Under the pieces are notes generated by a model that ran no database searches, had not been told where the DNA came from, and saw only the letters and a list, made by a program, of their open reading frames with translations. From the NCBI GenBank assembly GCA_024635475.1, contig JAGXIW010000008.1, forward strand, positions 13,592-77,591: DNA of 64,000 bases, in the 5' to 3' direction. Each line of letters starts with the position of its first letter. Position 1 is the stretch's first letter. A program made the translations under genes and the position numbers. The stretch comes from a bacterium. GTDB lineage: Bacteria > Patescibacteriota > Gracilibacteria > BD1-5 > UBA6164. Shown one piece after another: positions 6,778-27,143 of this stretch.

Positions 6778-7362
6778 ATGGAAAATTTTTTAAAAGAAAT
6801 TGTTAAATGAAATAAATTTGAACTTTTGATTGATAGTAATATATTTTCAAAAGAAATAGTATTAAAAGCTGCTTATAATTTTTTGGATAAAGGTTATTTT
6901 TTCTTTAAATTAGATAAAGATAATAATATAATTTTGCAGTTTACAGTAAAAGATGGAATAAAGGAATCTCCTGAAAGTATTATCTGAGATTTCTCAGATG
7001 AGATTTTATCTGTGTATTTAAGGGATAAATTAGAACATGATAATAAAGATATAAGAGAAAAAATAGTTTGAGCAGCAATTGCAAATAGTATAGATTCAAA
7101 ATGATTTACTCAATTTGATACTGATAGACAAGATAATCAGGAACAAAATCAAATAGATTTTGATAAAGATATAGATGAGATTTTGAGAGAAATAGAAAAT
7201 GATCCAGAATTAAAAATAGATGAAGAAGAAATAGAAAGAATACTTAAAGAAATAGAAGAAGAAAGTAATATGATAAATGATGATAAACCAATTATTAATT
7301 TAGATATGGATGCTATAAAAGAAGTAAAAGAAAAATTTAAGAAAGATAAAAAAAGTAACTAA
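6778..7362 (+). CDS. hxsD: HxsD-like small protein with an acidic low-complexity tail (His-Xaa-Ser system accessory protein candidate)
   Basis: 194 aa. The N-terminal ~110 aa (IFSKEIVLKAAYNFLDKGYFFFKL ... DEILSVYLRDKLE) resemble, from memory, the HxsD family (TIGRFAMs TIGR03976, LLNDYxLRE-type motif). The remainder is a D/E-rich tail. It lies immediately upstream of hxsB- and hxsA-like genes. Confidence 0.5.
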
Positions 7363-7386
7363 AAAAATAGTTTTTAATTATAATAA

Positions 7387-7584
7387 ATGTCAAAAAAAAG
7401 TTTAAAATTGGACAAAGAAATATACAATGAAGAAGTTATAAGACAAGCTATAGAAGATTTTAAAAATATAGCTTTTATAACTTACAAAAATTTTGAGATA
7501 ATAGTAGAATGAGAATGAGATTTAGAAGAGATTTTGAATGAATTTATGAACTATTGTTTAGGTTTGCAAAATGAATCAATTTAA
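7387..7584 (+). CDS. Second small HxsD-like protein (65 aa)
   Basis: MSKKSLKLDKEIYNEEVIRQAIEDFKNIAFITYKNFEIIVEGEGDLEEILNEFMNYCLGLQNESI. It has the same (V/I)xxAxxxF plus (I/L)LN(D/E)(Y/F) pattern as the preceding gene. Gene 25 bp after the previous stop and 23 bp before hxsB. Confidence 0.4.
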
Positions 7585-7607
7585 TTAATAAGTAAATCAA
7601 TGAAATT

Positions 7608-9143
7608 ATGTTTGATTTGGAAAAAATAAAAAAAATTAAAAGTGATAAAATATGATTTTTCAGATTCAAGAAATTTGATGAAAGTACATATCTTATTACT
7701 AATGATATAGCTAAGTATTCTTTTTTAACTAAAGAAGAATTTAATGATTTTATATCTTGAAAAATAGTTTCTTGAGTAAAATATGATGAGTTATTAGAAA
7801 GAAAATTTATAAAAGATGAAAAATATGAAACAGATATGTCTTTTGCTTATGCAAAGAAAAATAAATTTCTAGCATATTGACCATCTTTGCACATAATAAT
7901 TACAACACTTAGATGTAATCATAAATGTAAATATTGTCATGCAGCAGTAGCTCCAATGACAGCAACAGAAATGGATATGACGCAAGAGACAGCTAAAAAA
8001 GTAGTTGATACTATATTTTATACTTCATCAATAGATTTAACTATTGAATTTCAATGATGAGAATCTTTGATCAACTGGGATATTGTTAAATATATTGTAG
8101 AATATGCTGAAGTAAAATCTTTTCATTTGAGTAAAAATATAACTTTTGCTTTGGTAACTAATCTTACTTTGATGGATGATGAGAAACTGGACTATATATT
8201 GGCTCATAATATACATATTTCTACTTCTTTAGATTGAGATGAAGAGACTCATAATTATAATAGAACTTTTAAAAATGGTAATAGTTTTGAACAGGTAACT
8301 AATTGGATAAAAAAAATAAATGATAAATATGGTGAAATAGATTCTGTAAATCCTGATTTCAATTGAAAAATTATAAGAAAAGTGGGAGCATTATTAACTG
8401 TTACAAAAAAAACACTTTCAAAATATAAAGAAGTTATTGATACATATGTTTCTTTATGATTAGATTGAATATTTTTAAGACCATTAAATCCTTACTGATT
8501 TGCAGCTTCTGATATAGAAAAACTTTGATATACAAATGAAGAATTTATAGATTTTTACAAGAAATCTATGGATTATATAATTGAGTTAAATAAAAAATGA
8601 GTTGATATAAGAGAAAATTTATCAAGTATATATTTAAGTAAAATTTTAACTGATACAGATCCAAATTATCTAGATGAAAGAAGTCCTTGTGGTGCTTGTA
8701 TATGACAGGTTGCATATAATTATGATTGAAAAATATATAGTTGTGATGAATGAAGGATGTTTGCCCGTATGTGAGATGATAGTTTTTTAATGGCTGATAT
8801 TAATAATAGTGATTTTTCTGAATATCCATGACACGATACTTACAATAAGATGATAAATAGTGAAACAACAAAAACCATGGTTCAGGCAAGTACTCTAGAT
8901 TGATTGCCTTGATATAATGACAGTGTTTATAAGCCATACATCTGAGTATGTCCTATTCACTCATATAAGACTAGTGGTAATATTATTCCAAATTATTCTA
9001 AAGATTATAAAAAAATACTTGATTACGCTGTTTTGGATTATATATTTAATAAGCTTAGGGATAAAGAAATTTTGGATTATTTTAAAAAATGGATAGTTAG
9101 ACCGTGAGATGCTTCAGTTGTTAGTCAATGTGAAATTATTTAA
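7608..9143 (+). CDS. hxsB: Radical SAM/SPASM maturase, HxsB-like
   Basis: 511 aa. The N-terminal FRFKKFDESTYLITNDIAKYSFLTKEEFNDF is typical of HxsB as I recall it. rSAM motif LRCNHKCKYCHA (CxxxCxxC), IEFQGGESL, and a SPASM-type Cys cluster SPCGACIGQVAYNYDGKIYSCDEGR ... GVCPIHSY. Directly followed by the His-Gly-Ser repeat peptide gene. Confidence 0.75.
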
Positions 9144-9174: not shown

Positions 9175-9567
9175 ATGTCAGAAGATAAGAAAAAATTGTT
9201 CCCAAAAATAAAAAAGAAATTAAAATGATTTCTTACAGAAGAAAGTGGTAAAATGAGCAAGAAAGATGCTTTATGATTAGGTGTTTGAGTGATGTTATTA
9301 AGTGTGATTGATGAGGTCGGGGCAACTAATCCTACAACAAACCACAGTAATAATCATACTAAATGTAATGTTTCAATGACAGCTGGAGCGGTAGTTAATC
9401 ATGCAAGTTCAATTGTAAATTGACATTATAGTGCGACTCCTGCCGCAAATGTTACTTTTTCACATGGATCACATGGAAGTCATGGATCACATGGATCACA
9501 TGGAAGTCATGGGAGTCATGGATCACACGGGAGTCATGGATCACATGGAAGTCATGGGCAGTGGTAA
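9175..9567 (+). CDS. hxsA: His-Xaa-Ser repeat precursor-like protein (HxsA-like); C-terminus is (Ser-His-Gly)x11 followed by Gln-Trp
   Basis: 130 aa: MSEDKKKLFPKIKKKLKGFLTEESGKMSKKDALGLGVGVMLLSVIDEVGATNPTTNHSNNHTKCNVSMTAGAVVNHASSIVNGHYSATPAANVTF(SHG)11QW*. ATG 9175, TAA 9565-9567. It sits between HxsB-like and HxsC-like radical SAM genes. Confidence 0.8.
9460..9558 (+). repeat. Coding 9-bp tandem repeat (11 units) encoding Ser-His-Gly
   Basis: Units are TCA/AGT CAT/CAC GGA/GGG. Ser codons alternate between the two codon families. All 11 Gly codons are GGA (8) or GGG (3), and none is TGA. Confidence 0.95.
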
Positions 9568-9591: not shown

Positions 9592-10290
9592 ATGAAAAAA
9601 ATATATTTTTGATTGAGTCTATTTATTAACCTATCTTTAGTTATTGTACTTGTTTTTAGTTTAATAAATAATAAAAATTCAAATAATTTTTGAACTTGAA
9701 TTAATGATAAATTTAATTCTTGAAATTTAAGTAAATCTTGAATTTTAATAAAAAATGAAATAAAAAATTTTTCTAAAGAAGAATTAGAAAAAGAATGTAA
9801 AAAGATTATTGATTGAAAAAAATCAAATTTCATTGAAAAAACAGAATTATATTCTTTATATAAAGATATTAATTTAGATAATTTAAAAAATAACAATGAA
9901 TATTTAGCTTTATTGAATTTGAAAAAATTAAATTGTGAATTTTTTAATTGAAATGATTATTATAAAACTTGTAATATTTTAAAAACAAATGATATTAAAA
10001 ATATTGATAATAATATAATAAAAGATGCTTATGGTAGAACATTATTAAAATCGATGATATTAGGTTTTAATAAATGTGATGAATTATCTAGTCAAAAAGA
10101 AAAGAAAGAATGTAATATATATTTTAATAATTATATTGATTTAGAAAAATTATATACATGATCGATAATATGATCATCGTCTGTTGAAGTTTGAAGAATA
10201 TTTAATGATTTGTGAGAAAAAATTTTTTTAGAAAAATTAAATAAGGAATTTATAGAAAAATGTAATAAATTAGATTTTTCAAAAGAATAG
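9592..10290 (+). CDS. Hypothetical membrane-anchored protein (232 aa) inside the Hxs cassette
   Basis: ATG 9592, TAG 10288-10290. N-terminal TM helix (FGLSLFINLSLVIVLVFSLI) followed by an Asn/Lys-rich domain with 6 Cys. No recognisable family. Confidence 0.6.
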
Positions 10291-10361: not shown

Positions 10362-11360
10362 ATGAAAAAAAATAATTTTCCATTTGAGCATATTACATTG
10401 ATTATGACAAGAGATTGTAATTTAAAATGTGAATATTGTTCACTTAATCATACAAAAATTAATATTACTAATGAGATATTAGACATATTTTTTAGGAAAA
10501 TAATTAAATATAATAATTATAATTTAAATATTACATTATTCTGATGAGAACCATTATTAAATAAAAAATGAATCGAACATATTTATGTACTATTGAAAAA
10601 GTATATGAAAGAGTTTATCGGGAATAATATTTTTATTTATTTGAAAATTCCTTCAAATGGGACCTTATTAAATAATGATTATATAAAATTATTTAATAAG
10701 ATAAAATCTTTAAATTTTATAAATTTATCATTTAATATAAGTATTGATTGAGATAAAACAACTCAATTAAGACAAAGAAATTATGCAAAAAAAAATTTAG
10801 ATTATTATGAAATTTTAAAAGAAAATATAAAAATGTTGGTTCTGAATAATTTTGATGTTGAATTATCGACTGTATTAGCTTTTTCTAATGATAATTTTTT
10901 TGATGATATTGTTTATTTGATTAAAAAATTTAAATTACCAATTTTTCTAATGCCTATGCAATTAACATCAGGTTATATTGTTGAATGTGAAAATATAAAT
11001 AACCATATAAAAAAATATTTAATAAATATTGAAAGAACACTAAAATTAATAAAAATAAATAAATTAGATAGATTCATTATTAATTTTTCTTCTTATGTTG
11101 ATGTTGTAACTCCTTCAATTGGTCCTACAGTTGATGTAAATGGTGATATTTATACGACTAGATCATTTATGTTTTCTCTTGATAGAAGTGAAAAATTTTT
11201 TAAAATTTGAAATATAAAAAAAATGGATTTAGTTAATTATTTTATAGATAATGATATAAAAAAAATTGAATTTGAAAGTTTTAAATTATTTTATTGAAAA
11301 ACATTTTTGATCAATAAAAGTATTTGAGACTTTTTTACTAATTTAATTTATAGTAAATAA
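10362..11360 (+). CDS. hxsC: Radical SAM protein without a C-terminal Cys cluster, HxsC-like
   Basis: 332 aa. TRDCNLKCEYCS (CxxxCxxC), LFGGEPLLNK, later GPTVDVNGDIYTTRSF. No SPASM/twitch cysteines, as expected for the second rSAM of an Hxs cassette. Its stop overlaps the next start (TAATG). Confidence 0.65.
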
Positions 11361-12271
11361 TGAAGAGACTTGAATTTCATATATCATATATATGCCAACA
11401 TAAATGTATTTTTTGTAGTGAAGCAGATAGAATGGATAATTTTAAAAATTATCCATTATCTTTATTGCAAATAAAAACTATTTTGATAGATAGAATGAAA
11501 AAATGATATAATCATGTTAATTTTACTGGTTGAGAACCTACTATTACTCCATGATTTTTAGAATTACTCAAATTTACGAAAAAACTTTGATATAAAATAT
11601 ATGTTTGAACAAATTGAGTTATGTTTTATTCTGAAAAATTTGCTAAAGAATCTTTAAAATATATAGATGAACTATCTCTATCTGTTCATTGGTATTCATT
11701 AAATACATGTTGAAAACAGATTTGATTGAAATATCACTTTAATAATTTTCCTATTATTGTTAATAATATCGAAAAATATAAGGCTAATAATAATTTTTTC
11801 TTTTTAAATATAGTTATAAATAAATATAATTATTTTGATACTGAAAAGATAATAAATTTTGTTATAGAGACATGATATGATTTTAAACAAGTTTTAGTAT
11901 CAAATATTGCCCCTGAATGAAGTGCAAAACATAATTATATTGATATTGTTTTTGATTTAAATGAGTTTAGGAATTATATTCCAAATATAATAAAAAAATG
12001 TAATGATAATTGAAAAATACTTAGATTTTTTTGATTGCCTACATGTATTTTAGAAGAAGACTTTATTGAGTATTCAAATGATGAACATTGGGAAGAAAGA
12101 CACACAATAGAAAGATTTTTGAATAAAAATTGAAAAGTATCATTAATAGATATTTATTCTCCAGATAATTCAAGAGAAAGGACATTTGTAGATAAATGTA
12201 ATAATTGTAAATGGAAAAAAAATCCTTGTACTTGAATTTTTAAAAAATATTTAGATTTTTATGAATTTTAA
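11360..12271 (+). CDS. Radical SAM protein with C-terminal CxxCx6CxG auxiliary-cluster motif
   Basis: 303 aa. ISYICQHKCIFCSE, KKGYNHVNFTGGEPTI, KKLGYKIYVGTNG, and C-terminal DKCNNCKWKKNPCTG. Paralogue of the 13192-14133 gene. Confidence 0.8.
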
Positions 12272-13210
12272 ATGGAATTAATATATATATTAACTTATAA
12301 TTGCAATTTTCGTTGTAAATATTGTGATATAAATAAACATGTCAATAATATTTCAAAAAAAGTTATAGACCAAAGTTTGATATTTTTGGAGAAAAATAAT
12401 TTTAATATAGAAAAGGTAAAATTTTTTGGTTGAGAACCATTATTGAAAAAAGATTATATAAAATATATTGTGACTAATTTTCCGAAAAATGTTAAAAAAA
12501 ATTTTTATATTACTACAAATGCAACTTTAATTGAAGAAAATTTTATGTTATTTGCTAGAAATAACAATATAAAATTAACATTTAGTATTGATTGAAATAG
12601 TAAAACTATTTGAATCAATAGAATTACGAAATGATGAAAAGATTTATCAAATATTATTATAAAAAACACAAAAAAATATAATGATTTTATAAGAATAAAT
12701 CAAGTTATTACTTCAAATAATTCTAAGGATTTTTTTGCTAATTTTAAATTTATATATGATTTATGAGTTAGAAAATTTAATTTTTTACCAGAATATTATT
12801 CTGAATGGTCAAAACAGTGATTAAAAAATTTAAATAAGTGATTTAATGAAATTTTTAATTTTTATAAGGAATGAAATCAATTTGAATTAGTAAATTTAGA
12901 AAATTATTCTAATATTTCATTTTTTAATCTATGATTAATAATAGATACTGATTGAAGTATTTATTGAACTAATTTAATTTTATCTTGAGTATTTGAAAAA
13001 TATAAAAAAGACTTAATATTATGAAATATTTTTTCTGAAAATTATATTAATTTTCAAGATGATGACTTTATTAGGAGTTACATAGATAAAACTTGAAATA
13101 TTTTAGAAATAGAATATAGTAAAAATATATTAAATTCAGTAAAATACGTAGATTTAATGTTAAATAATTTTTGTAATAAAATGTACTTTTTATGGAATAT
13201 AAAAGATTAG
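12272..13210 (+). CDS. Radical SAM protein, second HxsC-like paralogue (no C-terminal Cys cluster)
   Basis: 312 aa. TYNCNFRCKYCD, FFGGEPLLKKD, GLIIDTDGSIYGTNLI (compare GPTVDVNGDIYTT in the 10362 gene). Its start is 1 nt after the previous stop, and its 3' end overlaps the next gene by 19 nt. Confidence 0.75.
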
Positions 13211-14133
13211 AAATATATGTTTGATGGACATGTAATCATAAATGTACATATTGTAAAGAATATCCAAATATGGAAATACTTTGGAATAAAAAGGTTACAA
13301 AATATGACATATTAAAGTTACTAATAAAATATAAGAAAAAATGATATAATCATGTTAGTTATCTTTGATGAGAACCATTTATTCAACCTGTGTTTTTAGA
13401 TGCATTAAAATTGTGAAAAAAACTTTGATATACTATATTGGTTACCACAAATTGTTCAACACTTCATATAGATAATCAAGCTAGTAAATTTTTACCATAT
13501 ATAGATGAGTTAATATTATCTATTGAAGCTATAGATAAAGAAAAACAGCAAATTATATCTAGAACAAAAAATTATGTCATTTGGGATAAAGTTTTTGATA
13601 ATATAAAAAAGTATTGGAATTGAAAATTGTTTAAAGCAAATATTGTTATAACTAAAGATAATTTAAAAGACCTTTTCTTAATAGTATCTTTTTGTATTAA
13701 TAATAATTTTAAGGAAATAGCAGTAACTTACCCAGATATAGATTTAGATTATTATGGAAAAAAACATATTTTAAATAAAGTTGCTCCAAAATATTCAGAT
13801 TGTGTGAATGAAATAATAAATATAGTTAATTTATGTGAAATAAATAAAGTTAATTTGAAATTACCAGATTTTCCTTTTTGTGTTTTTCCAAAAAAAGATT
13901 TAGAAAAATATATATCGTTAACTGATGATTACGATTATCAAACAAGGCTAAATATTTTTCAAAATACAATAGAATTTGATAGGTGAGATTTAAAAACAAC
14001 AGAGGAGATTCCTAGACAAAGATCTCATTTAAAATGATGTTTATGATGTATATATATTAATTTATGCTGGGGGGTATCTATATATTATAAAAAATTATAT
14101 TGACTAGATGAAATTAATCATATAACAAAATAA
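13192..14133 (+). CDS. Radical SAM protein with C-terminal CxxCx5CxG motif
   Basis: 313 aa. VGWTCNHKCTYCKE, KKGYNHVSYLGGEPFI, KKLGYTILVTTNC, and C-terminal LKGCLGCIYINLCWG. Confidence 0.8.
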
Positions 14134-14136
14134 ATT

Positions 14137-15159
14137 ATGTGAAAAAAATATAATGATTCAAAGATTTACATTAATGAAATAATTAGAATTACTTATAAAT
14201 GTAATTGGAAATGCAAGTTTTGTAATGTTTTTAAAACAAATAATTTTTGAGAAAAGGATATAACAGTTAAGGAAGTAATTTATCAAATTTTAAATTTAAC
14301 TAGGAAATATACTAAAGAGCAAAGAAAAAATCTTATACTATCATTTTCATGATGAGAGCCAACACTAGATAAAAATTTATTTACTTATATTAGATTAGCA
14401 AAAGGTATATGAATATGAATTATTCAAATTCAAACAAATTGAACCATTTTATTTAAACATAAAACTTATATAGACAATTTAATTGCAGTATGACTTGATG
14501 AAATATTTTTAGCTCAGCATTCATCAGATGTTGATATAAATAATAAATTGGGAATTTATTACAATATAAAAGATTTTATTAATTGGGTAGGGGGTATAAA
14601 AAAAAATGGAATATATAAAAAAATTTATATATGATTTAATATTGTTATTACAAAAATAAATTTATTCCAGATTTATGATTATTTAAATTTTCTATTAGAA
14701 GTAGGTTTTTTATGAATTTTACCAAAAATAGTAAATTGACAAAATCCTATTTCTTTTTGATTAGTCCAACCTAATTGATATGCAGAGATTAATAAAGAAG
14801 AAATTTTACTAAAGTACAACGATGATGAATTGAATGAAATAAATAAAATTATAGATTTTTGTAAAGAAAATAATATATATCCAGATTTCCATTTTACAGC
14901 ACCACCATTATGTATTTTAAATTATCCTGAATATAATTTAGAATATAAAAGATCATTAAATTTAGAAGAAGATGTTAAAAAATGAATAGTTAATGAATGA
15001 AATTTAGAATCATTTAAATCTTTAAGAAAAGAGAAACAAAAATTCAAAGAATGTGATAAATGTAAATATAATAATTATTGTTTATGATTTTATAAAAACT
15101 GGATTAGCTTTATTTGAGAAGACTATGTAAAAGAAAAAATTAATAATTTTATAAAATAG
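14137..15159 (+). CDS. Radical SAM protein with C-terminal CxxCx5CxG motif
   Basis: 340 aa. ITYKCNWKCKFCN, LSFSGGEPTL, IQIQTNGT, and C-terminal KECDKCKYNNYCLGF. Confidence 0.8.
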
Positions 15160-15164: not shown

Positions 15165-16520
15165 ATGATTAATATAAAACAATTATTAAATAAAATACTT
15201 ATTTCATCAGATGTTTATTTTTTTACTATCGATTATTTATTTAGAAAGATAGTAATATTTGCCTGAAAATATATTTTAGAATTTTCTTTAGTTGATAAAT
15301 GATGAAGTATAAAACAAAGTAAATATTTTTATTTCTTTTTAAGAAAAATAGATGATATAGATAATATTTATAATTTTTTAAATTCAGATAATAAAGTTAT
15401 TTCAAATAAAAATATTTGAGAAATAATAAATATCATAATTAAAAATGAGGAATTAATATATCATATATTTTATGGTGAGTGTGAAGTATTTTATGAAAAA
15501 ATATTCAATAAGATAAAAATAAATAAAAATATATTATTTATATTAAAGTGATGATGAATGGAAGAGACTATAGAGAAATCTTTTATTTCATATTGTAATA
15601 ATTCAAATATAAAATTAACTGTTTTATATAAATTTTGAACCTGATATTGGGGGCAAAAACTTAATCAAGATTGATTTTTTAATGAATTAAAAGTTAATAA
15701 TAAAAATGTTAAATTTTTATATAATGAGGATTTTAACGATGAATTTATAGATTCTATGGTTAATGAAAATACTGAGATTTTTTCTTTTCAATATGATTAT
15801 AAATGAATATATAAAGATTTTAATATGATAGTATTATCAAGTGTTACTGATAAAAATATAGATTGTTCTAGGTATAAAAATGTATTTTCTTGTTATCAAA
15901 GTAAAACTATATGATATAGTACAGATAAATTTATAAATATTGAAAATACTAAAGTTTATAAGATATTTAATCCACAAAATATAGATTTATTAAATAATTA
16001 TTCTGTAATTAAAAAGGTACCAAATTTTATTTTATCTTGATGAATGTCATGGGCAAGAGATTTTTCTATATTAAATTCTTTAGAAGGTAAATATAAATGA
16101 ATATTAGTAAGTGATGAAATTCATGAAGTAAAGAATTTTTTATCTATGTATAGATGAATTCAAAGTTATTATTGATTTTTAGGTGTTTTTAAATTATCAA
16201 GTTTTTGAGTTTTTTGTCATCTTGAAAAATTTAACGATGATGATAGAAGTAAAATGATAGCAACATCTATTTGTGCATGAAAACCTGTTATTGTTCCACA
16301 TAATGATTGATTAATTGTTAAGGAAATTATTGATAACAAATTAGGACTTGTTTATAGAAATTGAGACATAGAAGATTTACAAAAAAAAGTTATGTTTTTT
16401 GCTGAAAATAAGGATAATATAGAAGAATATTCTAAAAGATGTTTAAGTTATTCAAAAGAACAAATGGATATTAATAATTTTATAAATTTTATTTTTGATA
16501 AAGCTTTTATTGATGAATAA
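15165..16520 (+). CDS. Glycosyltransferase-like protein (GT-B / GT1-type C-terminal domain)
   Basis: 451 aa. The C-terminal ...DRSKMIATSICAGKPVIVPHNDGLIVKEIIDNKLGLVYRNGDIEDLQKKVMFFAENKDNIEEYSKRC follows the EAxAxGxPVI...G...E.I....G.L pattern of GT-B sugar transferases. The N-terminal half is unrecognised. Its stop overlaps the next start (ATGAATAA). Confidence 0.45.
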
Positions 16521-18162
16521 ATTCGAACAAATAATATTAAAAATATTAAATACAAATTTTTCTAGTTCAACTATAAAATGCACTTATTTATATAATGAGT
16601 TTTTTATAAGTATGTCCAAAACCTGAGAATTTGTTTTGCTTTGAATATCTTATAAATCATCAAAAATACAAATAAATAAATATAAATGAGAAGATACTAG
16701 AATTTGAAAAATACTTTTAATTTTGCTCAAAAAATATGAAGAGATATTTTTAAATTATTTTAAAATTAAACAAAAAACTATTTTTAATTTATGAGAAGAA
16801 TCAGAGTTTATAAATATTTTTGATAAAAAAGAATTAAATTATGAAAATATAGAAGAAAAACTGTATTTTAGTTTTTTAGATGATTATTCTTATAGAAGAA
16901 GGAGTGAAATGAGTTTTAATATAGAAGAAAAATCCATTATTGATATATACCATAGCGATTTTGAATGTTCTAAATGTGCTTGACCTAGGGAAGCATTTAC
17001 AAATTTTATTGATTATCATAATCATGAGGTATGTTTAGAAAAATCTTTTCGAGCAAGTGAAAATAATACAAAAAAAATTAATTTATATACAAATATAACA
17101 GATTATGAATCTATAACTATTTGATGAAATGCTAAGATAGATGAAATATTACAAAATATAGAATTAATAAATGAATATGATATTATTTCTATTAATAAAA
17201 CTTGTATATCGGTAATTATGTGAGATGACATAGAATCAATTCTAAAGCATAATAATATTTCTAAAGAAAAAACTATTTATACTGATCAAAATACTGATAG
17301 TTGATACAGAGTAATTATAAATTATTTAAAGACTTTAGATATTTTAAAAGTTTCTAAAAATAATGAATTAGTATTCTTTTGACTTAATAAAAATAAAAAT
17401 ACTTTTGAATTAATAAAATTTTTACAAAATAATTTTTGATTACAAGTTTGAAATGTATTATTACCAAATATAAATAAAAAAGATTTAGAAAATATTTTAA
17501 GATATAAATTAGCTGTATTTTTTATTGGTAGAGAAACAAAAACTCAAAATATATTTAAACTATATCCTATAGATAATCTTGAAATTAATGTTCCATATGG
17601 TATTTCTAAAACTTATGAGTTATATGAAAGTATACTTTTAAATTATTGATTAGAAGAAGAAAAATTAAAACTAAAGAATATTTTTAATGAATTGAGAGAA
17701 AAAAATATAGAACTTTTTAATAAATCAAAAAAATATAACATATGATTTATTATTCATGACTTTCATATAAAACAGTTTTCACAAGATAATTTCAGAGGAT
17801 GTTCTATAATATCTATGTTGAACGATATGGGATTTCATTTAAATTTTTTTATTTATCTTGCAAGTGATAAATCAAAAGAAGATATAATTGAATTCAATGC
17901 AAAAAATGATTTATACAATTTTTATACAATTATTTCAAATAAAAAAGCAGATTTAGATAAATTTATAAATGATGAAAATATACAAATCTATTATTCAGAG
18001 ATTTCAAGTGATTCAAGGATTATATCAAAAAATAAATGACAATTTTCAGTTTGAGATTTAGAGTATTGAATAGATTGATTTTATAGAAGTTTGGAATTGC
18101 TTATAAAAAAATGTGAAAAGGTTGATTATATGAATTCAAAATTAAATTATTATTTAAAATAG
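16513..18162 (+). CDS. Nitrogenase component-1-type oxidoreductase family protein (NifD/K / BchN/B-like), long subunit
   Basis: 549 aa. ...KTCISVIMGDDIESILK (the C..IGDD motif of the family), LAVFFIGRETKTQNIFKLYPIDNLEINVPYGISKTYELYESIL, and C-terminal GQFSVGDLEYGIDGFYRSLELLIKKC (the vGY.G...l pattern). About 170 aa of N-terminal extension have no match. The call is weaker than for the next gene. Confidence 0.55.
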
Positions 18163-18166: not shown

Positions 18167-19369
18167 ATGGATATAATAGAAAAATATACTCAAATTTATG
18201 GAAGTCCTTTTTTGACTTGAGTTTTTATGTGAGTTAATGCTATAAAAGATGTTGCATTATTTGTTGATGGGCCAGATTGCATATTTTATAAGGCTGATAT
18301 GTTATATAAAACTCATGATTTATGATCTAGTCTTAAACAAGCAAGTATTGATACAAAACTATATTTCTCATGAGTTATGCCAAATAAAATGGTAAGATGA
18401 TATGATGAAGATATAAAAAGAAAGTTATCTTTCATTGAAGAAAATTCAAAATTTAATCTTTGAGTTGTTACTTGTATGCCAGTTACTTGATTACTTGCTA
18501 CTCAGTATGATAATATATATGGAGATTTAAATAAAGATTTTATTTTTGTCCCATCCCATACAGATAAATTTCGGCTAGATTGATATAGTATATTTTTGAA
18601 AGAATTAGCAAAATATATAAAACTTGATGAGAAAAAAGAAAAGAAAAAATTAAATGTATCGATAATTTGATACCTTTTTGATAGGAATGAATGAGACTGT
18701 ATTTGAAATTTAGAAGAAATAAAAAGAATACTTAATCTAATCTGAGTAGAACTAAATTCTATATGGCTTAGTTGATGAGATTTAAAAGATTTATCTAATA
18801 TAGAAAACTCAGAACTTATTATTTCTTTTCCTTATGGATTCCAAGCTTCAAAAATTATATCAAGAAGACTTAATGTAGATATTTTAGAGTTAGATATTCC
18901 TTTTTGATTTGAGAATACTATAAATTTTATTGAAAAAATTTGAAAAAAATTATCTATAGATAAAATAAAAATAGATAGTGTTTTGAAAAAAGAAATTACT
19001 TTTGTAAAAGAAAAAATAGATTTACTTAATGAAAAAGTTTTTTTAAACAAAAATTATATATTTGCCTGAGATCCTTTTATGGAAAAGTCTATAAAAGATA
19101 TTTGAGATTTCTTTTGAATGAATCATATATTTACATATAATTATAATTGATCTAAAAAAGCAAAAGAAACTGATTTTGATAAAAAAAATGTAGATTTAAT
19201 TATAGGAAATTCAGAATTTAATTTGAGTTCAGAGTTTAAACTAGAGTTTTGATTTCCATCTTACAATACGCACTTTTTACTTGAGAGACCTTATATGTGA
19301 TTCAGATGATTATTATTTTTTATTGAAAGATTATATCTTGAAATGACTAAATTAGATAAATTAAATTAA
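18167..19369 (+). CDS. Nitrogenase component-1-type oxidoreductase family protein (NifD/K/E/N / BchN/B-like), short subunit
   Basis: 400 aa. GVNAIKDVALFVDGPDCIFYKADM (HGPxGC-type cluster Cys), LGVVTCMPVTGLLATQYD, VSIIGYLFDRNEGDCIGNLEEIKRIL, ELIISFPYGFQASKIISRRLNVDILELDIPFGFENT, EFGFPSYNTHFLLERPYMGFRGLLFFIERL. Confidence 0.7.
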
Positions 19370-19375: not shown

Positions 19376-20194
19376 ATGAAAAAAATAGTGATTTATGGTA
19401 AATGATGAATAGGTAAATCAACAACTTCAACTCATTTATCTGTGGCATTTGCTAGCAAATGATTAAGAGTTTTACAAGTATGATGTGATCCTAAACATGA
19501 CTCTTGTAAAAGAGTATTAAGTTGAGTTAGAGATATTCCTACAGTTATTGAGTTATCAAAAGATAGAGATATATATGAGTTTACAAAAGATTTAATTATT
19601 CATAAATGAAGATTTTGAATTGATTGTATAGAAGCTTGATGACCGATTGCTTGAATTGGTTGTGCTGGTAGAGGGATATCACTTATGTTTGAAATATTTG
19701 ATGAAATAGGCTTACTTGATGAATCAAATTATGATGTAGTTATATTTGATGTACTTTGAGATGTTGTTTGTTGATGATTTGCATCACCTATAAAGGTTGG
19801 TTTTGCTGACCAAGTTTATATTGTACTTTCAGAAGAAATAATGAGTTTATATGCAGCTAATAATATATCAAAAGCAATTGTGAATTATCACAAAAATTGA
19901 GTTTGATTATCTTGAATTATCTTGAATTTAAGAAGTAATGAAAGTGATGTAAAAGTAGTTGAAGATTTTTCTAAAAGTTTATGAACAGAGATAGTTTGAA
20001 TTATGAATAGATCAGATTGAATTTTGCAAGCGGAAAGAAAAAATATGACTTTATACGAATTTGATAGTAATCATATAGATTTACAAAAATATAATAAATT
20101 AGCAGATTTTATGTTAAAAAATGAGAATAAAATTATTCCTATTACTTTTACAGATAGAGAATTTGATGATTTTATTTATGATAAATTTTATTAA
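19376..20194 (+). CDS. NifH/BchL/CfbC-family ATP-dependent [4Fe-4S] reductase component
   Basis: 272 aa. KIVIYGKGGIGKSTTS (P-loop; both central Gly are TGA at 19403-19408), VGCDPKHDS (switch I), GIGCAGRGI and LGDVVCGGFA (the two cluster-ligand Cys), [17 protein letters not shown]. Confidence 0.9.
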
Positions 20195-20242: not shown

Positions 20243-20968
20243 ATGAAATATTCACCTAATATATATAAATATATTTCAGAAGATATATCAAATGCATTTC
20301 GTTATGGATTTAAAGAGTGAGAATATGAAGCAAATAAATCTCATGTTAAAATTACTGAAGATAAAAAGTTTGAGATTATTGAATTTGATGATTATTTTGA
20401 AGTAAATGGTTATTTAATAGCGAAAGAAAATTTTTGAGAACCTTGTTCTCCAAATGTTCAAAAAAATCCAGTAAATATAGATAAAGGAGCTCCACAGGCA
20501 TGGATGTATACTATAGATGATGATTCAGTATCAGGTGATGGTAAATATAGATGATTCGAATTATTTAAATATACATTTCCACGGATTAATATTTCAAAAA
20601 CCACAGCAATAAATCAAAATATATATCCAGCTAATTTTTGGGTATACAATTCTATATGAGCAATTATAGAAGGAGAATATCGTTGAGTAAGAATTCCAGA
20701 GAATTGGGAGCTTTTAAATTTAATAAATTCTATTCCTTGAAATTGTATTGAAAAAGCAAAATCTTTACAGATACCATTCATTGGATTTCGTAGTACTGAT
20801 AATAGTGGAAAAATTCATTTTCTTTGAGAATGTGCATTTCTTTTATCTTCAGATCATTTTGCAAATGCTGGTGAACGTAATTTACGTCTTTTTAGATGAG
20901 GAAATAAAGCAATTGGTGATTGGATTGACTGTGGTCGTTGAGCTTCTGTGCGTTATTTTCTAAAATAA
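20243..20968 (+). CDS. FISUMP-like (Fibrobacter succinogenes major paralogous domain-like) protein
   Basis: 241 aa. The C-terminal GVRIPENWELLNLINSIPG...IPFIGFRSTDNSGKIHFLGECAFLLSS...CGRGASVRYF matches the G.hlPs..EW..L ... G.r...G ... g.SVRC pattern of TIGR02145 as I remember it. Confidence 0.45.
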
Positions 20969-21005: not shown

Positions 21006-21974
21006 ATGAAAAAACATATAGAGATAAATATTTGAAAAGCATGTAATAATAAATGCAGATTTTGTATGAGTTCTCAATATGCAATAAAACGAGTTTGAGA
21101 AACTTTTTGATTAGTAGCTTTTAATTTAATAAAAAAAGAAATTAAAACATATGCTATTAAATGATATAAATCAATTTGATATATTTGATGAGATATTTCT
21201 ATTCATCCAAATATTTATGAAATTATAGAAAAATCAAGAAAATATTGATTTGAAAATATATCAATTATTACAAATGCTATGGTATTTTCAGATTATAATA
21301 AGGCAGAGAAATTAATTTTATCTTGAACAACTAGAATAAATATATCTATTCATTCCCATAATTGTAATATAGAAGATTATATCACTCAAATAAATTGATG
21401 ATTTGAAAAGAAACTATTAGCTATTGATAATTTTAATAAATTATATAACCATAAAGTTTTAAAAAATCCAATAAGTATAAATATAGTTTTAAATTGATTG
21501 AATTATAAAGATATAACAAAAACTTGTTTATACTTTTATAAAATTAAGAATATAAAAGATATAAGAATAAATTTTTTATGGAATAGATTTTTTTTCTCTG
21601 AAGATGATAAAAAAAAATTAGAATTAAGTTATACAGAATTTTTACCTTATTTAAAAGAATTAATAATATTTTCAATAAAAATAAACCTAAGAATAACATT
21701 TGATGCAATTCCAGCTTGTGTTTTTCATAAATTAGGATTTAAAAATCATAATTTTATAATTAGAAAATTTTTATGAGAAGAATTGGATTATATAGATGAG
21801 GTTTCTAATATAAATATGGATGTAAAATTTAATTGGAAAGAACAAAAAAGAAATGAACTAAAAACAAAATTTGATAAATGTAATGATTGTTTATATTCAA
21901 ATAAATGTCAGTGAATCTGGAAAGAATATGTTAAAAGATATTGAGAAGATGAATTTAATGCTATTTTATTTTAG
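21006..21974 (+). CDS. Radical SAM protein with C-terminal CxxCx5CxG motif (tandem paralogue A)
   Basis: 322 aa. INIGKACNNKCRFCMS, KGYKSIGYIGGDISIHPN, ITNAM, RINISIHSH, and C-terminal DKCNDCLYSNKCQGIWKEY. Confidence 0.8.
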
Positions 21975-22120
21975 AAATATCAACATAACTATTTTTTCTT
22001 GAAATGTTGTTAATTATGATATAACAAGAATACTAGATTTACAATTTATTTAAAAATTAGTTATTACATCTAAAATAGATGATAATAGTAACTTGAAAAA
22101 TTTAAATTATTGTAAAATAG

Positions 22121-22153
22121 AAAAATAATTTATAAAAAAATAAATTATTTTTT
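22121..22153 (+). terminator. Weak all-A/T hairpin followed by a T-run inside the 280-bp gap of the cluster
   Basis: AAATAATTTA (22123-22132) pairs perfectly with TAAATTATTT (22141-22150) around an 8-nt loop, followed by TTT. The stem has no G/C, so terminator function is uncertain. Confidence 0.3.
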
Positions 22154-22254
22154 AGGAGAAAATAGATATAATGATCAAGAAAATTATAATATAATAAGAA
22201 ATTATTATGAAAAAAATTTTAGCATAAGATTAATTTCATATAAAATATTACATC

Positions 22255-23214
22255 ATGGATAATCTAAAACATATCGAAATTAATATCTGAAAAGCTTGTA
22301 ATAATAGATGTAGATTTTGTATGAGTTCAAAATCAGAACTAAGGGATATTAAATTTGTACAATTGGATGAATTAAAAAATAAAATTAAAAGTTATTCTGA
22401 AAAATGATATAAATCAATATGATTTTTATGATGAGATATATCAATTCATCCAAATATAATAGAAATAATATCTTTTTGTAAAGAAAATTGATTTGTAAAT
22501 ATAAATGTAATAACAAATTGAATGAGATTTGAAGATTTTAAATTTACAAAAAAGTTGATAAATGCTTGATTAACAAGAGTCAATTTTTCAATTCATTCTC
22601 ATCTAGATAAAATAGAGGACTATCTTATACAAGTTTCATGATGACTTCAAAAAAAATTAAAAGCAATTGATAATTTTAATATTTTCTATAAAAATTGACT
22701 ACTAAGAGATGAATTAAGTATAAATATAGTTTTAAATAGTAAAAATTATAAAACAATTGTAGAGACAGTCTTATTTTTTTATAAAATAAAAAATATAAAA
22801 GATATTAGAATAAACTTTATTTGGCTTAATAATGATACTAAAGAAAATTGGGAGGATTTAAAATTAACTTATACAGAATTTTTACCATATTTAAAACAAC
22901 TTATATATATATCACTAAAATATTATATAAGAATTACTTTTGATACTATACCAGCTTGTATTTTTTATAAAATAGATAATATAAATTACAAATCATTAAT
23001 AAAGAAATTTTTATGAGAAGATTTAGATCATATAACAGAAATCGATCATATAAATAACAATGACCAATTTAATTGGAAAGAAAGAAAAAAAGATATGTTA
23101 AAAATGCAGTTTGAACAATGTGAAAAATGTAATTATAATATTTCTTGTCAATGAGTTTGGAAAAATTATTGAAAGATATATTGATGAGATGAATTTAAGG
23201 CTGTAATTAAATAA
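22255..23214 (+). CDS. Radical SAM protein with C-terminal CxxCx5CxG motif (tandem paralogue B)
   Basis: 319 aa, collinear with the 21006 gene. INIGKACNNRCRFCMS, KGYKSIGFLGGDISIHPN, RVNFSIHSH, YKIKNIKDIRINF, LTYTEFLPYLK, and C-terminal EQCEKCNYNISCQGVWKNY. Confidence 0.8.
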
Positions 23215-23228
23215 TTTTACTAAAGAAT

Positions 23229-24857
23229 ATGATTGAGAACAAAAAAATAATAATAGATAAATATATATCAAATATAACTACTTTTGATCTTTTTTCTGAA
23301 ACATATCGTTGATGAAAAGAACAAAAATTGTATTTGCCATTATCTTATAATTATATATTTTCAAAATGGGAAGATTTTATAAAGATGAATCCTGATTGAG
23401 TTATAGATTTATATATTCATATACCTTTTTGTTTAAAATTATGCTCTTATTGTAATTATTATAAAACTTTAGTTGAAGAAAATAGTTTAGATAAATATGT
23501 GCTTGATTATTTGATTCCATATTTACAGAATATATCTATTATTTTCGAGTGATTTAAATTTAATTCTCTTTATATATGATGATGAACACCATCAATTATT
23601 GGTTTAAAATTATTAGAAAAATTATTATCTTTTATCGAAAATAATATACTATTTGTAGAGTGAGCCGAGAAAACATTTGAATGAAATCCTATTTCTCTTT
23701 CAGAAAAGAAAATAGAAATTTTATCAAAATATTGAATCAATAGGGTCAGTATGGGTGTTCAAACATTGAATAATAAAGTTTTAATTAAAACTAATAGGGA
23801 ATATCAAAATTTAGAAATAATAAAAAAAGTTATTAATAAACTTAATAATTTTTGAATATCTAATATAAATATTGACTTATTAATATGATTAGATAATAAT
23901 GAAAAGGATGATTTTATTTATTCTTTGTGAGTTTTCTCAAAATTAAATATAAGTTTAATAACTACATATTGGTTAACCCCAACTTCCAGTTACCTTTTAA
24001 AGCATTTTTCTTGAGATAAAAATATGTTTTATGCAAATTTAAATAATCAAATAAATAGTATATATGATGAATTAACCAAGATTATTTCGAAATTTAAATT
24101 TGAAAGTTATAATATAAGTAAATTATCTAATCATTGTTGGCAATTTACAATAAAAAACTGTAATACAAAAACTAGTTATACAGATATTTGAAATAATTCA
24201 ATATTATGAATATGACCTTCATCTAGATCTTATATAAATTGATCTTTGGTTTATTTGACATTAGAGTATATTCCAATAAATTTTAATATAAAATTTGTAG
24301 ATAATTTATGAAAAAAAATAAATAGTTATGATGAAATGCTTTTATATACTATAATTAATGTTAGAGACAATTGATTTATTAATACAGATTATATATATAA
24401 AAATTTTAGTTTAGATTTTAAAAATATATTTTCTCAAGAAATTGAATTTTTATTAAAATTTAATTATATAACAATTAAAGATAATAATTTTATTTTTTCT
24501 GAAAATGTTAATAAAAAGTATTATTCTATATTATTTTTATTTGATTTGATAAAATTAGATATAAAAGATTTTTTGAATTCAAAAGAAAAAAGAGGAAATT
24601 ATATAACTTTATCTAGTAATAATATAGAACTTATTTTAAATATAAAAAATGATAATGTTTTTATATTTGTAGATAAAGAAAAAATTAATATTAATAATAT
24701 TTATCGATATTACTTTGTTATACTAAATATAAAAAAAATTTATGAAAAATTTAATAAATATATATTTAGTTTATTAGACTTTTATAATATTTTGAATAAA
24801 TATTTTTCAAAAAAGAACAAAGATTTAAATGTATTTTTAAATTATACTTCTAAATAA
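23229..24857 (+). CDS. HemN/HemW-like (coproporphyrinogen III oxidase family) radical SAM protein
   Basis: 542 aa. LYIHIPFCLKLCSYCNY (CxxxCxxC with the HemN context), SLYIGGGTPS, GINRVSMGVQTLN, DLLIGL, and ILGIGPSSRSY near the HemN C-terminal domain. An unrecognised ~100 aa tail follows. Confidence 0.75.
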
Positions 24858-24922
24858 TTTAAAAATTACGGATAATAAATTAATAGCAAGTAAATTAAAA
24901 ATTAAGTAATTATTCAAATATA

Positions 24923-26191
24923 ATGGAAAATAAAAAAAACTTTCTTTCTAAAGAAAAAATAACTAAACAAAATCGTATTTGGGTTCGTATAGCATCTGTA
25001 TGTAATAATAGATGTATTTTTTGTCTTGATAGTTTTGCTCAAAATTGAACTTTCCCGGAAGAAAACGAAATAAAAAAACAAATAAAAGATTGATATAAGA
25101 AATGATATGATAATAGAGTAATTATCTCTTGATGAGAGGCTTCAGTAAATCCTAAATTTGCTGATTATGTAAGATACTCAAAAGAATTATGATACGATAG
25201 AGTTCAAACAGTTACAAATTGAAATATGTATGCTTCTGAAATCTTTTGTAAAAAAGTATTTGAAGCTTGATTAGAGGAAGTAACATTTTCTTTTCATTGA
25301 CACAATGAAACTTTACATGACTATTTAGTTGATACTGCAGGGGCTTTCAAAAAATCACTTAAATGACTTATATACATAAAAAAAAATTACCCCCATGTAA
25401 TTATCAATATTGATATCGTAGTTAATAAAATAAATATAAAATTCCTTCCTGATATAATTAAATTTTTTATGAAACTGTGAGTTTATGAATATGATATTTT
25501 GCAAATAATCCCTTTTGGTAGATGATTTCAGGAAAATAAAGAAAAATTATTTTATAATATTGAAGAAAATATTAAATATTTGCAAGATACTTGGAAATTA
25601 TCAAAAGTTCCAGGTATGTATATGTGGACAAATAGATTTCCATCTGAAGCCTTTGAATGATATGAAGATTTAATTCAAGACCCGAGAAAAATCAAATCAG
25701 AAGTTATGTGAGAATGAAAACATCATTTTGAGCCATTTATAGTTTCTTGATGAGAAATAAAACAAGATTGTTTCTGAATTGCATGTGAGTTTTGTTTTTT
25801 AAACCAGTATTGTAATGATTTTATAAAAAATCGAGATAAAAATAAACTTGAATCAGATAGTAGTTATGAGATAATTAGATGAGAAGAATTTCCAAGCCAA
25901 GTTTATGAAAAATATTGAGAAAAAAAAGAAGATTTTATAAAATATTTGAAAGATATTGATAAATTACTTATAAATATCCCAAAATGTTTGTGATGAACAG
26001 GAATTTATGAAAGTTATAATGATATAAGAGAAGAAAAGACATTAGAAGATTATACATATAAATATATAAATAATTTATATAGAAAAAAATCTTTGAGATG
26101 TAATAGTTGTAAATATAATAAAACTTGTGAAGGTATTCATATAAATTTTATTAGGAGTTATTGATTTAGTATTTTACAACCTGAATTATAG
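24923..26191 (+). CDS. Radical SAM protein with extra Cys-rich C-terminal region
   Basis: 422 aa. RIASVCNNRCIFCLD, VIISGGEASV, VTNGN, EVTFSFHGH, internal CFGIACEFCFLNQYC, and C-terminal LRCNSCKYNKTCEG. Confidence 0.8.
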
Positions 26192-26198
26192 AAAAATT

Positions 26199-27143
26199 AT
26201 GGCAAATATTTGATATATCCAAGTAAATCGTTTTTGTAATAACCAATGTCATTTTTGTTCAAATACAAGTAATTGAAATAATATCACTTTTGAAAGATGA
26301 TTGGAACTTATAGATGATTTTATTTCTAGAAAATATTCTTGAATTATCTTCACTTGATGAGAACCTACTTTATCACCAGATTTACCGAAATGGATAGATT
26401 ATGCAAAACAAAAGAATATTAATTGTAGGATTATATCTAACGGGATGATGTGTTCTAATATCGATTATATAAAAACTTTAAAAACTGCTTGATTATCTTT
26501 AATTCATTTTTCATTGTACTCATATATTTTAGAAATTCATGATTTTTTGACTGATACTCCATGATCATACAAAAAATTACTAAAAGCTATTCAAAATGCA
26601 TTAAAACTCTGAATTAGAGTACAATTAAATTGTGTTATAAATAAATATAATCAAAATCATCTTGATAAAACTACTAAATTTATAGTAAATAATTTTCCAG
26701 ATATAAAGCATTTTGTTTGGAATAATTTGGATCCACAGATGATGAGACAAACTGAGATTGCTTTATCTACTTTACCTGATTTTGATATTGCTTGAAAAAA
26801 TTTAGTTAGAACTATGACTTTTTTGGAATCAACTTGAAGAACTTTTAGAGTTGAAAGATTACCAATTTGTTTTATGAGAGGGTTTGAACGGGCTTCAACA
26901 GAAACAAGAAAAATAGTTAAACATGAAGAAAGAATAGTACATTTTTTGGATTCCAGAAATACTTTTCAGGAACTAGAATGGGAACATGAAAGAGCTATAG
27001 AATGTGAAAAATGTGACTTAAAATCAATTTGTGCAGGAATTTATGAAAAAAAGGCTTATTATAATTATGTAAAAGTTATTTCTCAGAAATTATCAAAAGA
27101 AGAAAAAGAAAAAATCATATCTAAAATAAAAATGGATGAATAA
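26199..27143 (+). CDS. Radical SAM protein with C-terminal CxxCx5CxG motif
   Basis: 314 aa. QVNRFCNNQCHFCSN, IIFTGGEPTL, IISNGM, LIHFSLYS, and C-terminal IECEKCDLKSICAGIY. Last gene of the co-directional block. Confidence 0.8.

Follow-up and report, generated by a model that had tools for sequence, protein, structure and literature searches.

In the 64-kb window analyzed here, the whole stretch read from the Gracilibacteria contig JAGXIW010000008.1, a block of 20 consecutive co-directional + strand open reading frames (ORFs) at positions 6778-27143 brings together a type-4 His-Xaa-Ser (Hxs) peptide cassette, a nitrogenase-like enzyme, NflDKH, and a battery of radical S-adenosylmethionine (rSAM) enzymes. 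The components are of known kinds, namely a "Group VI" Nfl with its rSAM suite and the HxsA4 variant of the Hxs family. The newly observed element is the conserved Hxs4-Nfl association, which appears to be unreported and recurs in three phyla, the Gracilibacteria lineage, Elusimicrobia, and Myxococcota. A literature search, confined to papers open without subscription, yielded none linking Hxs with nitrogenase-like enzymes, and a metaproteogenomic paper on Gracilibacteria mentions none of the genes of the block. The preliminary description of this DNA knew of no account of the Hxs cassette embedded with a nitrogenase-like reductase and so many extra rSAM enzymes; the combination of such a reductase with many rSAM genes was published as Group VI in 2020, two Gracilibacteria genomes included, and it is the link to Hxs that stands as apparently new.

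A profile scan of the GTDB species genomes with NflK yielded 76 loci (loci are designated by L numbers), which were annotated with the window proteins. Next to NflHDK, the loci L003, L021, L031, L051, and L061 contain an HxsB ortholog (337-422 bits) accompanied by HxsD, an (HGS)n precursor, or both. The Myxococcales loci L051 and L061 share the gene order HxsD-HxsB-NflH-NflD-NflK-HxsA4, and the hidden Markov model (HMM) scores in L051 were 478 bits for HxsB, 54.9 for HxsD, and 94.1 for HxsA4. In a second search, seeded by HxsB of an Elusimicrobia-like locus, Nfl was found near Hxs in three of four long Elusimicrobia contigs. A tight + strand operon of Elusimicrobia RBG_16_66_12 (L162), whose genes abut or overlap, reads HxsD-HxsB-HxsA4-rSAM-rSAM-NflH-NflD-NflK-rSAM-HemN-like-rSAM. 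L161 and L029 form one 29.7-kb Elusimicrobia contig (CAYLZQ010000001.1) that extends from HxsD to NflK, with HxsD-HxsB-HxsA4...NflH-NflK co-directional across about 28 kb, and in L164, also from Elusimicrobia, NflDK lies 3 kb upstream of HxsD. The metagenome locus L136 pairs Hxs with Nfl as well. On a second Gracilibacteria contig (L078+L047), HxsD is located at position 63 and NflDKH at about 22-25.7 kb, and all called genes and window-protein matches are on the + strand across about 25 kb. The Hxs-linked NflK sequences are dispersed over the NflK tree, which consists of Group VI-like sequences only.

By our own rough estimate, a gene present once per genome would fall within 10 kb of NflK by chance at well below 2% of loci. 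Against this expectation, the pairing was observed at 5 of 76 loci and at three of four Elusimicrobia loci, and in addition in the Gracilibacteria lineage. Its recurrence in three phyla, in gene orders that differ and are sometimes interleaved, argues for a functional tie rather than chance adjacency, and so does the resemblance of most extra rSAM enzymes to HxsC. The synteny in these three phyla supports the earlier notion that cassette and reductase go together.

At the head of the block, HxsD (194 amino acids [aa], 6778..7362, +) scored 57.7 bits on TIGR03976 against a cut-off of 50, an HxsD-related small protein (65 aa, 7387..7584, +) 49 bits on NF038315 HxsD_rel (cut-off 41), and HxsB, an rSAM/SPASM maturase of 511 aa (7608..9143, +), 491.4 bits on TIGR03978 (cut-off 370), in agreement with the two HxsD-like proteins and the HxsB previously assigned here. 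HxsD orthologs lie ahead of HxsB in Gracilibacteria, Elusimicrobia, and Myxococcales loci, and an ORF of 65-66 aa occupies the HxsD-related position in L078, L079, L080, and L165. HxsB carries its rSAM motif, CNHKCKYC, at residue 103; on the other peptide-maturase models among its matches it fell far short of the cut-offs (e.g., PapB 122.4 bits versus 340), and PqqE and MftC were absent from its 25 best families. Its orthologs comprise more than 120 Gracilibacteria proteins of 64-96% identity, an unusual conservation for an accessory system.

The precursor gene directly downstream of HxsB encodes HxsA4 (130 aa, 9175..9567, +; NF038313, 60.9 bits versus a cut-off of 55). From its Lys-rich leader (FLTEESGKMSKKDAL) the protein runs through a hydrophobic segment and a linker rich in His and Asn to (Ser-His-Gly)x11-Gln-Trp, with the repeat encoded at 9460-9558; the 11 repeats had been noted before, and the Gln-Trp follows them. 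The leader is conserved across phyla, and both leader and (SHG)n-[S/Q/R]W tail are shared by Elusimicrobia, Myxococcales, and many metagenome loci. The canonical HxsA model was absent from the NCBIfam output for the precursor (E<=0.01). No peptidoglycan-binding domain was matched in the NCBIfam scan, Pfam not having been run on the precursor, and such a domain is improbable because 130 aa leave little room for it. The leader of HxsA4 has the look of an export signal, and that of Myxococcales resembles a twin-arginine signal.

Comparison of the repeats covered the window, L021, L031, L051, L061, L078-L083, L096-L154, and L161-L165. Gly occupies every third position of the (Ser-His-Gly)n core (window 9460-9567), a collagen-like Gly-X-Y periodicity, and weak matches to the SclA/SclB/Lcl collagen-like adhesin models were obtained. 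Nearly always the C terminus holds one aromatic residue (...SHG[S/Q/R]W, once ...GSY) in about 35 loci of 23-76% GC. The leaders of Myxococcales HxsA4 (L051 11372-11773 and L061 11375-11758) contain LTRRDLV, a hydrophobic stretch, and then AQA, with KKD there in Gracilibacteria. A Gracilibacteria homolog in L080 (11538-11927) retains the leader and the HASGIVNGHYS motif, and its (SHG)n is swapped for HASHASSGSGSGSGSGSW, a Ser-Gly repeat minus His; Trp-halogenase and FkbO/Hyg5-like genes are present at this locus in place of Nfl.

Exactly 11 ORFs with a CxxxCxxC motif were found in the window, every one of them inside the block, which confirms the earlier count of rSAM enzymes. They fall into three sets: a PapB/HxsB-like core (HxsB, rSAM1, and rSAM3), seven HxsC-like paralogs, and one HemN/HemW-like enzyme. 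The seven mutual paralogs (starting at 11360, 13192, 14137, 21006, 22255, 24923, and 26199) all have a C-terminal CxxCx5C motif. HxsC or HxsC4 is the best NCBIfam family for six of the seven; for the 13192 paralog, HxsC4 ranks fourth at 47.4 bits, below a generic viperin-type match at 57 bits. No window protein reached the cut-off of HxsC4 NF038332 (500; top score 126.9 bits, 24923-26191) or of HxsC TIGR03977 (267.9; top score 100.9 bits, 26199-27143). HxsC4-like homologs in L021, L051, L138, and L163 are likewise below the HxsC4 cut-off (106-162 bits), and the window HxsC4-like enzymes are, judging by these scores, related paralogs outside the narrow NF038332 model.

In the core set, rSAM1 (10362..11360, +; PF04055 47.6 bits, PapB 72.7) is devoid of auxiliary-cluster Cys and has an ortholog (209 bits) in the Elusimicrobia operon L162. 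This gene had been taken for HxsC, an assignment ruled out by the HMM scores (35.5 bits for HxsC, with a PapB-like family best); no HxsC-like gene adjoins HxsB at the window locus. The other member, rSAM3 (12272..13210, +; PapB 116 bits, HxsB 68), is 30% identical to HxsB across 160 aa. The PqqE or MftC matches of a few window rSAM enzymes were far under cut-off (e.g., PqqE 39.2 versus 381), and NifB was not among the best NCBIfam families of any rSAM enzyme of the block.

Among the HxsC-like paralogs, rSAM2 (11360..12271, +; HxsC 73.8 bits, HxsC4 62) is represented in the Nfl loci of Elusimicrobia by orthologs scoring 168-187 bits. The HxsC4-like rSAM4 (13192..14133, +; NCBIfam) opens a conserved Gracilibacteria Nfl module, and its orthologs (441-487 bits) lie immediately upstream of rSAM5-NflD in L002, L047, L166, and L167. 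For rSAM5 (14137..15159, +; HxsC4 73.6 bits), an ortholog of 334 bits was found in Absconditicoccus praedator and orthologs of 474-501 bits in the Nfl modules of Gracilibacteria. The HxsC4-like rSAM6 (21006..21974, +; 87.9 bits) and rSAM7 (22255..23214, +; 110.7 bits) are tandem paralogs of 55.6% identity, as the preliminary description had recognized, and rSAM7 orthologs occur in Elusimicrobia Nfl loci (165-199 bits) and in L163 and L162 (175-180 bits). Two CxxCx5C motifs are present in the HxsC4-like rSAM9 (24923..26191, +), whose orthologs scored 698-735 bits in Gracilibacteria, compared to 311-316 in Hxs4 loci without Nfl and 217-246 in the Nfl loci of Elusimicrobia. The best HxsC candidate is rSAM10 (26199..27143, +), with TIGR03977 as its best NCBIfam match. 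Its orthologs adjoin HxsB/HxsA4 in Nfl-less loci (220-277 bits), where HxsC is again the top family, and occur in Elusimicrobia Nfl loci (236-288 bits); rSAM10 is most likely the HxsC equivalent of the type-4 system. The rSAM7/9/10 trio was found both with Nfl-less Hxs4 loci and with Nfl loci having no Hxs gene within 10 kb, and genes of this kind bridge Hxs4 and Nfl loci.

The remaining enzyme (23229..24857, +) is a HemN/HemW-like class C rSAM protein of 542 aa with a unique C-terminal half. It scored 130 bits on HemW (cut-off 205) and 128 on ChuW, with the alignment limited to residues 61-306, and the HemN_C domain was not found in it. Its former HemN-like label holds for the rSAM core and fails on the full-length score and on HemN_C.

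The nitrogenase-like enzyme consists of NflD, a NifD/E-like subunit of 549 aa (16513..18162, +; PF00148 37 bits, gathering threshold [GA] 28.6; NifE/NifD about 23 bits), NflK, a NifK/BchB-like subunit of 400 aa (18167..19369, +; PF00148 92 bits; BchB 41 bits), and NflH, a NifH-family ATPase/[4Fe-4S] reductase of 272 aa (19376..20194, +; PF00142 273 bits), which substantiates the NifD/K-like pair and NifH-like ATPase already described at 16513-20194. On the NifD/E/K, BchB/N, and CfbD models, NflD and NflK reached only 15.5-41 bits, and NflH was below cut-off for NifH (279.8 versus 394), CfbC (276.8 versus 402), BchL (213 versus 345), and BchX. Against solved structures, NflH scored 200-210 bits with NifH and 160-171 bits with BchL. 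Its GKGGIGKS P-loop, C96, and C132 are conserved among 64 aligned homologs. The homolog alignments left C152, C231, and C534 as the only conserved Cys of NflD, and in NflK an invariant DGPDC38 and one variable Cys position. Both subunits thus appear to lack the full P-cluster and FeMo-co ligand sets, and the few conserved Cys, about 2-3 in NflD and 1-2 in NflK, fit a simple [4Fe-4S] enzyme.

About 40 of the 58 NflK homologs are of the Gracilibacteria type, and others are found in A. praedator, Elusimicrobia, and Woesearchaeota. The NflK profile retrieves Elusimicrobia GWA2_69_24, GWA2_66_18, and RIFCSPLOWO2_12_FULL_59_9 (E=1e-50 to 2e-62), whose Nfl loci share rSAM7/9/10-like neighbors with the window. 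"Group VI" nitrogenase paralogs were described in Elusimicrobia with up to 13 flanking rSAM genes (Meheust et al., ISME J 2020), and the same study located homologs in fourteen genomes of Myxococcales and two of Gracilibacteria. No member has been characterized to date, and FeMo-co ligands and NifB are lacking (Chem Rev 2026, PMC13474568). By homology to the defining Elusimicrobia proteins and by its rSAM neighborhood, the NflHDK of the block can be assigned, at the level of sequence, to Group VI. Further relatives of NflK (L057, L067, L065, L069, L052, L072, and L001) were detected in metagenome-assembled genomes (MAGs) of DPANN archaea (Woesearchaeota and Nanoarchaeota), MAGs labeled Methanosarcinales, a Spirochaetes MAG, another Patescibacteria MAG, and the cultivated predator A. 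praedator. The A. praedator locus contains eight rSAM genes and NflH-D-K.

We give about an even chance to the interpretation that the block is a single type-4 Hxs pathway of peptide maturation in expanded form, with Nfl as the enzyme of an ATP-driven reductive tailoring step. The conserved HxsA4 leader would be recognized by HxsD/HxsB in the cytoplasm, and the Ser/His/Gly repeats would receive several radical modifications from the HxsC-like rSAM battery. NflH would spend ATP and send electrons of low potential to a [4Fe-4S] cluster where NflD and NflK meet, and there an otherwise unreducible bond in the modified peptide could be reduced. Most plausibly this target would be a His-derived or cross-linked heteroaromatic ring, because DPOR, COR, and CfbCD reduce C=C bonds in N-heterocycles. 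The matured product may be exported or membrane-anchored through the signal-like N terminus, like canonical HxsA, and its candidate roles are an envelope barrier or defense, metal binding, and host interaction. All the chemical steps are drawn by analogy with DPOR, COR, CfbCD, and canonical HXS. The earlier suggestion of a repeat-peptide substrate and a difficult reduction by the Nif-like enzyme is compatible with the present evidence. More tentatively, and with somewhat less than even confidence, it may be proposed that Group VI enzymes are peptide-tailoring reductases and that NflHDK is the first nitrogenase homolog acting on a ribosomal peptide, the (Ser-His-Gly)n core of HxsA4. If that is true, the published tetrapyrrole proposal is wrong, at least for the Hxs-linked members.

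Several observations weigh against a single pathway. To our knowledge, no nitrogenase homolog acts on a peptide. Nfl lies within 10 kb in only 1 of 80 HxsB-anchored metagenome loci (L136), or in 1 of 23 when loci of at least 15 kb are counted, and HxsB lies within 10 kb in 5 of the 76 NflK-anchored loci, a figure that is an underestimate because the clusters exceed 20 kb. Gracilibacteria HxsB is much commoner (more than 120 proteins) than NflK (about 40), and very different genes follow other Gracilibacteria Hxs cassettes. On one contig of the Gracilibacteria genome GCA_017973835.1, the Hxs locus, with upstream PBP1-LytR-RluD synteny identical to that of the window, is 105 kb away from the Nfl module, which also has methyltransferase and carbamoyltransferase genes; the word "fused" in the preliminary description was an overstatement. 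The block also includes the HemN-like rSAM, and tetrapyrrole reduction is the sole published proposal for the role of Group VI (Meheust et al. 2020; PMC13474568). The Hxs-Nfl link is not obligatory, and most Hxs4 loci are without Nfl. Because comparative loci such as GCA_017973835.1 show the two parts to be separable, the block is two joined modules, an Hxs4 head (6778 to about 11360) and the conserved Gracilibacteria Nfl module (13192-27143). The unit of the latter is rSAM4-rSAM5-(GT-B-like)-NflD-NflK-NflH-...-rSAM9-rSAM10, with the GT-B-like gene present in the window, L047, and L166 and absent from two of the five compared loci (L002 and L167). In the Nfl loci without HxsA4, scans with an HxsA4-leader HMM and with His/tandem-repeat regular expressions gave no alternative precursor.

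On the same observations, the two modules might be independent neighbors, a self-sufficient Hxs4 peptide system beside a separate Nfl/rSAM module for a small molecule such as a tetrapyrrole-type cofactor, a glycan, or a natural product, which we consider unlikely but the most serious competitor. Candidate Phyla Radiation (CPR) genomes are generally without tetrapyrrole synthesis, which speaks against it, as does the absence of HemN_C from the HemN-like protein. It draws support from the many Hxs4 loci without Nfl, from the conservation of the Gracilibacteria Nfl module as a unit, once so distant from Hxs and accompanied by methyltransferase/carbamoyltransferase genes, from the HemN-like rSAM here and B12-binding rSAMs in Elusimicrobia, and from the tetrapyrrole substrates of the Nfl relatives DPOR, COR, and CfbCD (Meheust et al. 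2020; PMC13474568). However, the adjacency in three phyla, with differing orders and interleaved or overlapping operons, is far above expectation for two rare systems, most of the extra rSAM enzymes are paralogs of HxsC-like peptide maturases, and the Group VI survey detected a uroporphyrinogen III pathway in only five lineage IV Elusimicrobia genomes (Meheust et al. 2020). A NifB-like scheme had also been put forward, by which the rSAM set would build a novel metallocluster for Nfl and the His-rich peptide would serve as metal carrier or scaffold. A His-rich peptide, many Fe-S rSAM enzymes, and a nitrogenase homolog are indeed all present, yet the scheme was rejected as highly improbable on the best NCBIfam families of the rSAM enzymes, which do not include NifB, on the Cys of NflD/NflK, too few for a P-cluster and a complex cofactor, and on the HxsC-like paralogy of seven of the extra rSAM enzymes. 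In addition, Group VI is without FeMo-co ligands and NifB (PMC13474568), the HxsA4, HxsB, and HxsC-like genes are widespread without Nfl, and the HxsA4 leader resembles an export signal.

A role in defense would be compatible with the single tailoring pathway. The type-4 system, with or without Nfl, would make a modified His-repeat effector of the envelope, by which the entry of phage DNA is stopped or the cell is protected in some other way, a role that we regard as rather improbable. Canonical HxsD-B-C-A is an antiphage system (Li et al., Nat Commun 2026, PMC13128918), which supersedes the former view of the Hxs cassette as a purely bioinformatic definition. In that system, HxsB/C turn HxsA, through N-terminal cleavage and a change of +8 Da on SHRSS, into an effector in the periplasm that keeps phage DNA from entering (PMC13128918), and this maturation in the cytoplasm followed by export has its parallel in the signal-like HxsA4 N terminus, twin-arginine-like in Myxococcales. 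The highly variable genes downstream of the Gracilibacteria Hxs cassette point in the same direction. On the other hand, the strong conservation of Gracilibacteria HxsB, amid housekeeping genes and in no defense island, is against a defense role, and HxsA4 is devoid of the basic residues invoked for DNA binding and, in the NCBIfam scan and by its size, of the peptidoglycan-binding domain. PADLOC gave generic viperin-like rSAM similarity only, and PADLOC 2023 is without a matching model.

The organization of the block was established with the genetic code of the host. GC content of the whole window is 23%, and ORFs of at least 100 aa covered 15.5 kb under translation table 11 compared to 82 kb with TGA open. 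Both residues of the G-G in the NifH-like P-loop GKGGIGKS are encoded by TGA, as is the Gly of the rSAM GGEP motif, so TGA is a sense codon for Gly (code 25), and all ORF calling and translation of the window were done with this code. The 20-gene + strand block, the TGA recoding, and the junctions quoted earlier were all confirmed, the junctions exactly: 11358-62 reads TAATG, the ORFs overlap by 19 nt at 13192-13210, and ATGAATAA occupies 16513-20. The 19 intergenic gaps range from -19 to +71 nt with the single exception of 280 nt at 21975-22254. This sole long noncoding gap is strongly AT-rich, separates the tandem paralogs rSAM6 and rSAM7, and could be the site of an internal promoter. GC skew is strongly positive across the block. 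Promoter and terminator scans showed no excess over shuffled sequences (229 versus 224 and 1 versus 1.1, respectively), and these scans are therefore silent on operon structure. ARAGORN detected no tRNA gene and no Rfam family reached its gathering score in the whole window, so the suppressor-type tRNA-Gly(UCA) expected for code 25 is not encoded in it.

Three further proteins of the block were analyzed. The 451-aa product of 15165..16520 (+) is possibly a GT-B-like glycosyltransferase; the earlier call is backed by a Glycos_transf_1 match below GA only (17 bits, E=0.0035), and homologs adjoin NflD in L047 (497 bits) and L166 (685 bits). The product of 9592..10290 (+), which is 232 aa long and has 6 Cys and a hydrophobic segment at its N terminus, had no match in Pfam or NCBIfam; in Gracilibacteria, L079 (83 bits) and L081 (80 bits) each have a homolog immediately after HxsA4. 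The 241-aa protein at 20243..20968 (+) had been called FISUMP-like, an annotation that was dropped, with no match in Pfam or NCBIfam even at E<=5 and none in PADLOC.

Upstream of the block (window 282-6694) are genes for PBP1 (-), LytR-CpsA-Psr (-), and an RluD-like pseudouridine synthase (+), an order syntenic with another Gracilibacteria genome (L165 2717-8918). Downstream are two TraG/VirD4/HerA-like P-loop ATPases (28104-30539, +, and 32735-34636, -) and a protein of 518 aa whose N terminus bears a type IV pilin methylation motif (36121-37677, +). In other genomes, the Hxs cassette comes after ATP synthase or ribosomal-protein genes. The Gracilibacteria Hxs and Nfl clusters of L078, L165, L166, and L167 have variable extras, all absent from the window, which comprise two genes of the Peptidase_U32 family, one for a UPF0004/MiaB-like rSAM, one for GFO_IDH_MocA, and two for transferases, a methyltransferase and a carbamoyltransferase of 703 aa. 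Collagenases and O2-independent hydroxylases are among the members of the Peptidase_U32 family.

Hxs genes repeatedly wired into Group VI loci supply a candidate substrate, the HxsA4 (SHG)n-W peptide, that is cheap to test, and the association turns the Group VI substrate, an acknowledged open question, into a testable hypothesis. The pairing suggests that the Group VI reductase works on a peptide, not a tetrapyrrole. The compact Elusimicrobia and Myxococcales operons offer a minimal gene set for reconstitution in the standard code, with no recoding. The newly characterized HXS family is also extended by a widespread type-4 branch, as seen from the number of Gracilibacteria HxsB proteins and from (SHG)n-W precursors in loci of 28-76% GC.

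Among known systems, the pathways of PqqA/PqqE/PqqD, MftA/MftC/MftB, and the proteusins resemble the block in combining a small precursor with an rSAM-SPASM enzyme and a partner protein that is likewise small, and MftA has a conserved C-terminal aromatic residue, as does HxsA4. Unlike in these pathways, the HxsA4 leader resembles an export signal, and we know of no peptide-derived cofactor or hypermodified-peptide pathway with a nitrogenase-like reductase. Related Elusimicrobia loci contain many rSAM tailoring enzymes, B12-rSAMs included. With DPOR (BchLNB), COR (BchXYZ), and CfbCD, the block shares a NifH-like ATPase and NifD/K-like catalytic subunits, and the few conserved Cys suggest a similarly simple [4Fe-4S] at the subunit interface. 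In contrast to them, its proteins are under the BchL, BchX, CfbC, BchB, and BchN cut-offs, the window shows no evident context of a tetrapyrrole pathway, and the genetic surroundings suggest a peptide.

The likeness to canonical HXS (Haft's TIGR03976-03979) lies in HxsD and HxsB above equivalog cut-offs, in HxsC-related rSAMs, and in a precursor with His-Xaa-Ser-type triplet repeats and an N terminus consistent with export. In contrast, the precursor is of the HxsA4 type, with (SHG)n ending in Trp and 130 aa in length, the genes run D-Drel-B-A instead of D-B-C-A and the HxsC-like one lies 17 kb downstream, ten extra rSAMs and NflDKH are present, and the host is a CPR bacterium, compared to 99.7% of canonical HXS systems in Pseudomonadota (PMC13128918). 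With no HxsC at cut-off, another precursor type, and another gene order, the block falls outside canonical HXS. The agreement with Group VI Nfl loci extends to an ATPase of the NifH family that has the P-loop and the two cluster Cys, a pair of highly divergent PF00148 subunits with few conserved Cys, no NifB/NifEN, and many flanking rSAM genes, one of them HemN-like, ten rSAMs flanking Nfl in the block. The Nfl order is D-K-H in the block versus H-D-K in Group VI. Neither Meheust et al. 2020 nor Chem Rev 2026 (PMC13474568) mentions peptides, SPASM maturases, or Hxs; unlike in the published account of Group VI, the Nfl genes of the block, of Elusimicrobia, and of Myxococcales are embedded with HxsD, HxsB, and HxsA4.

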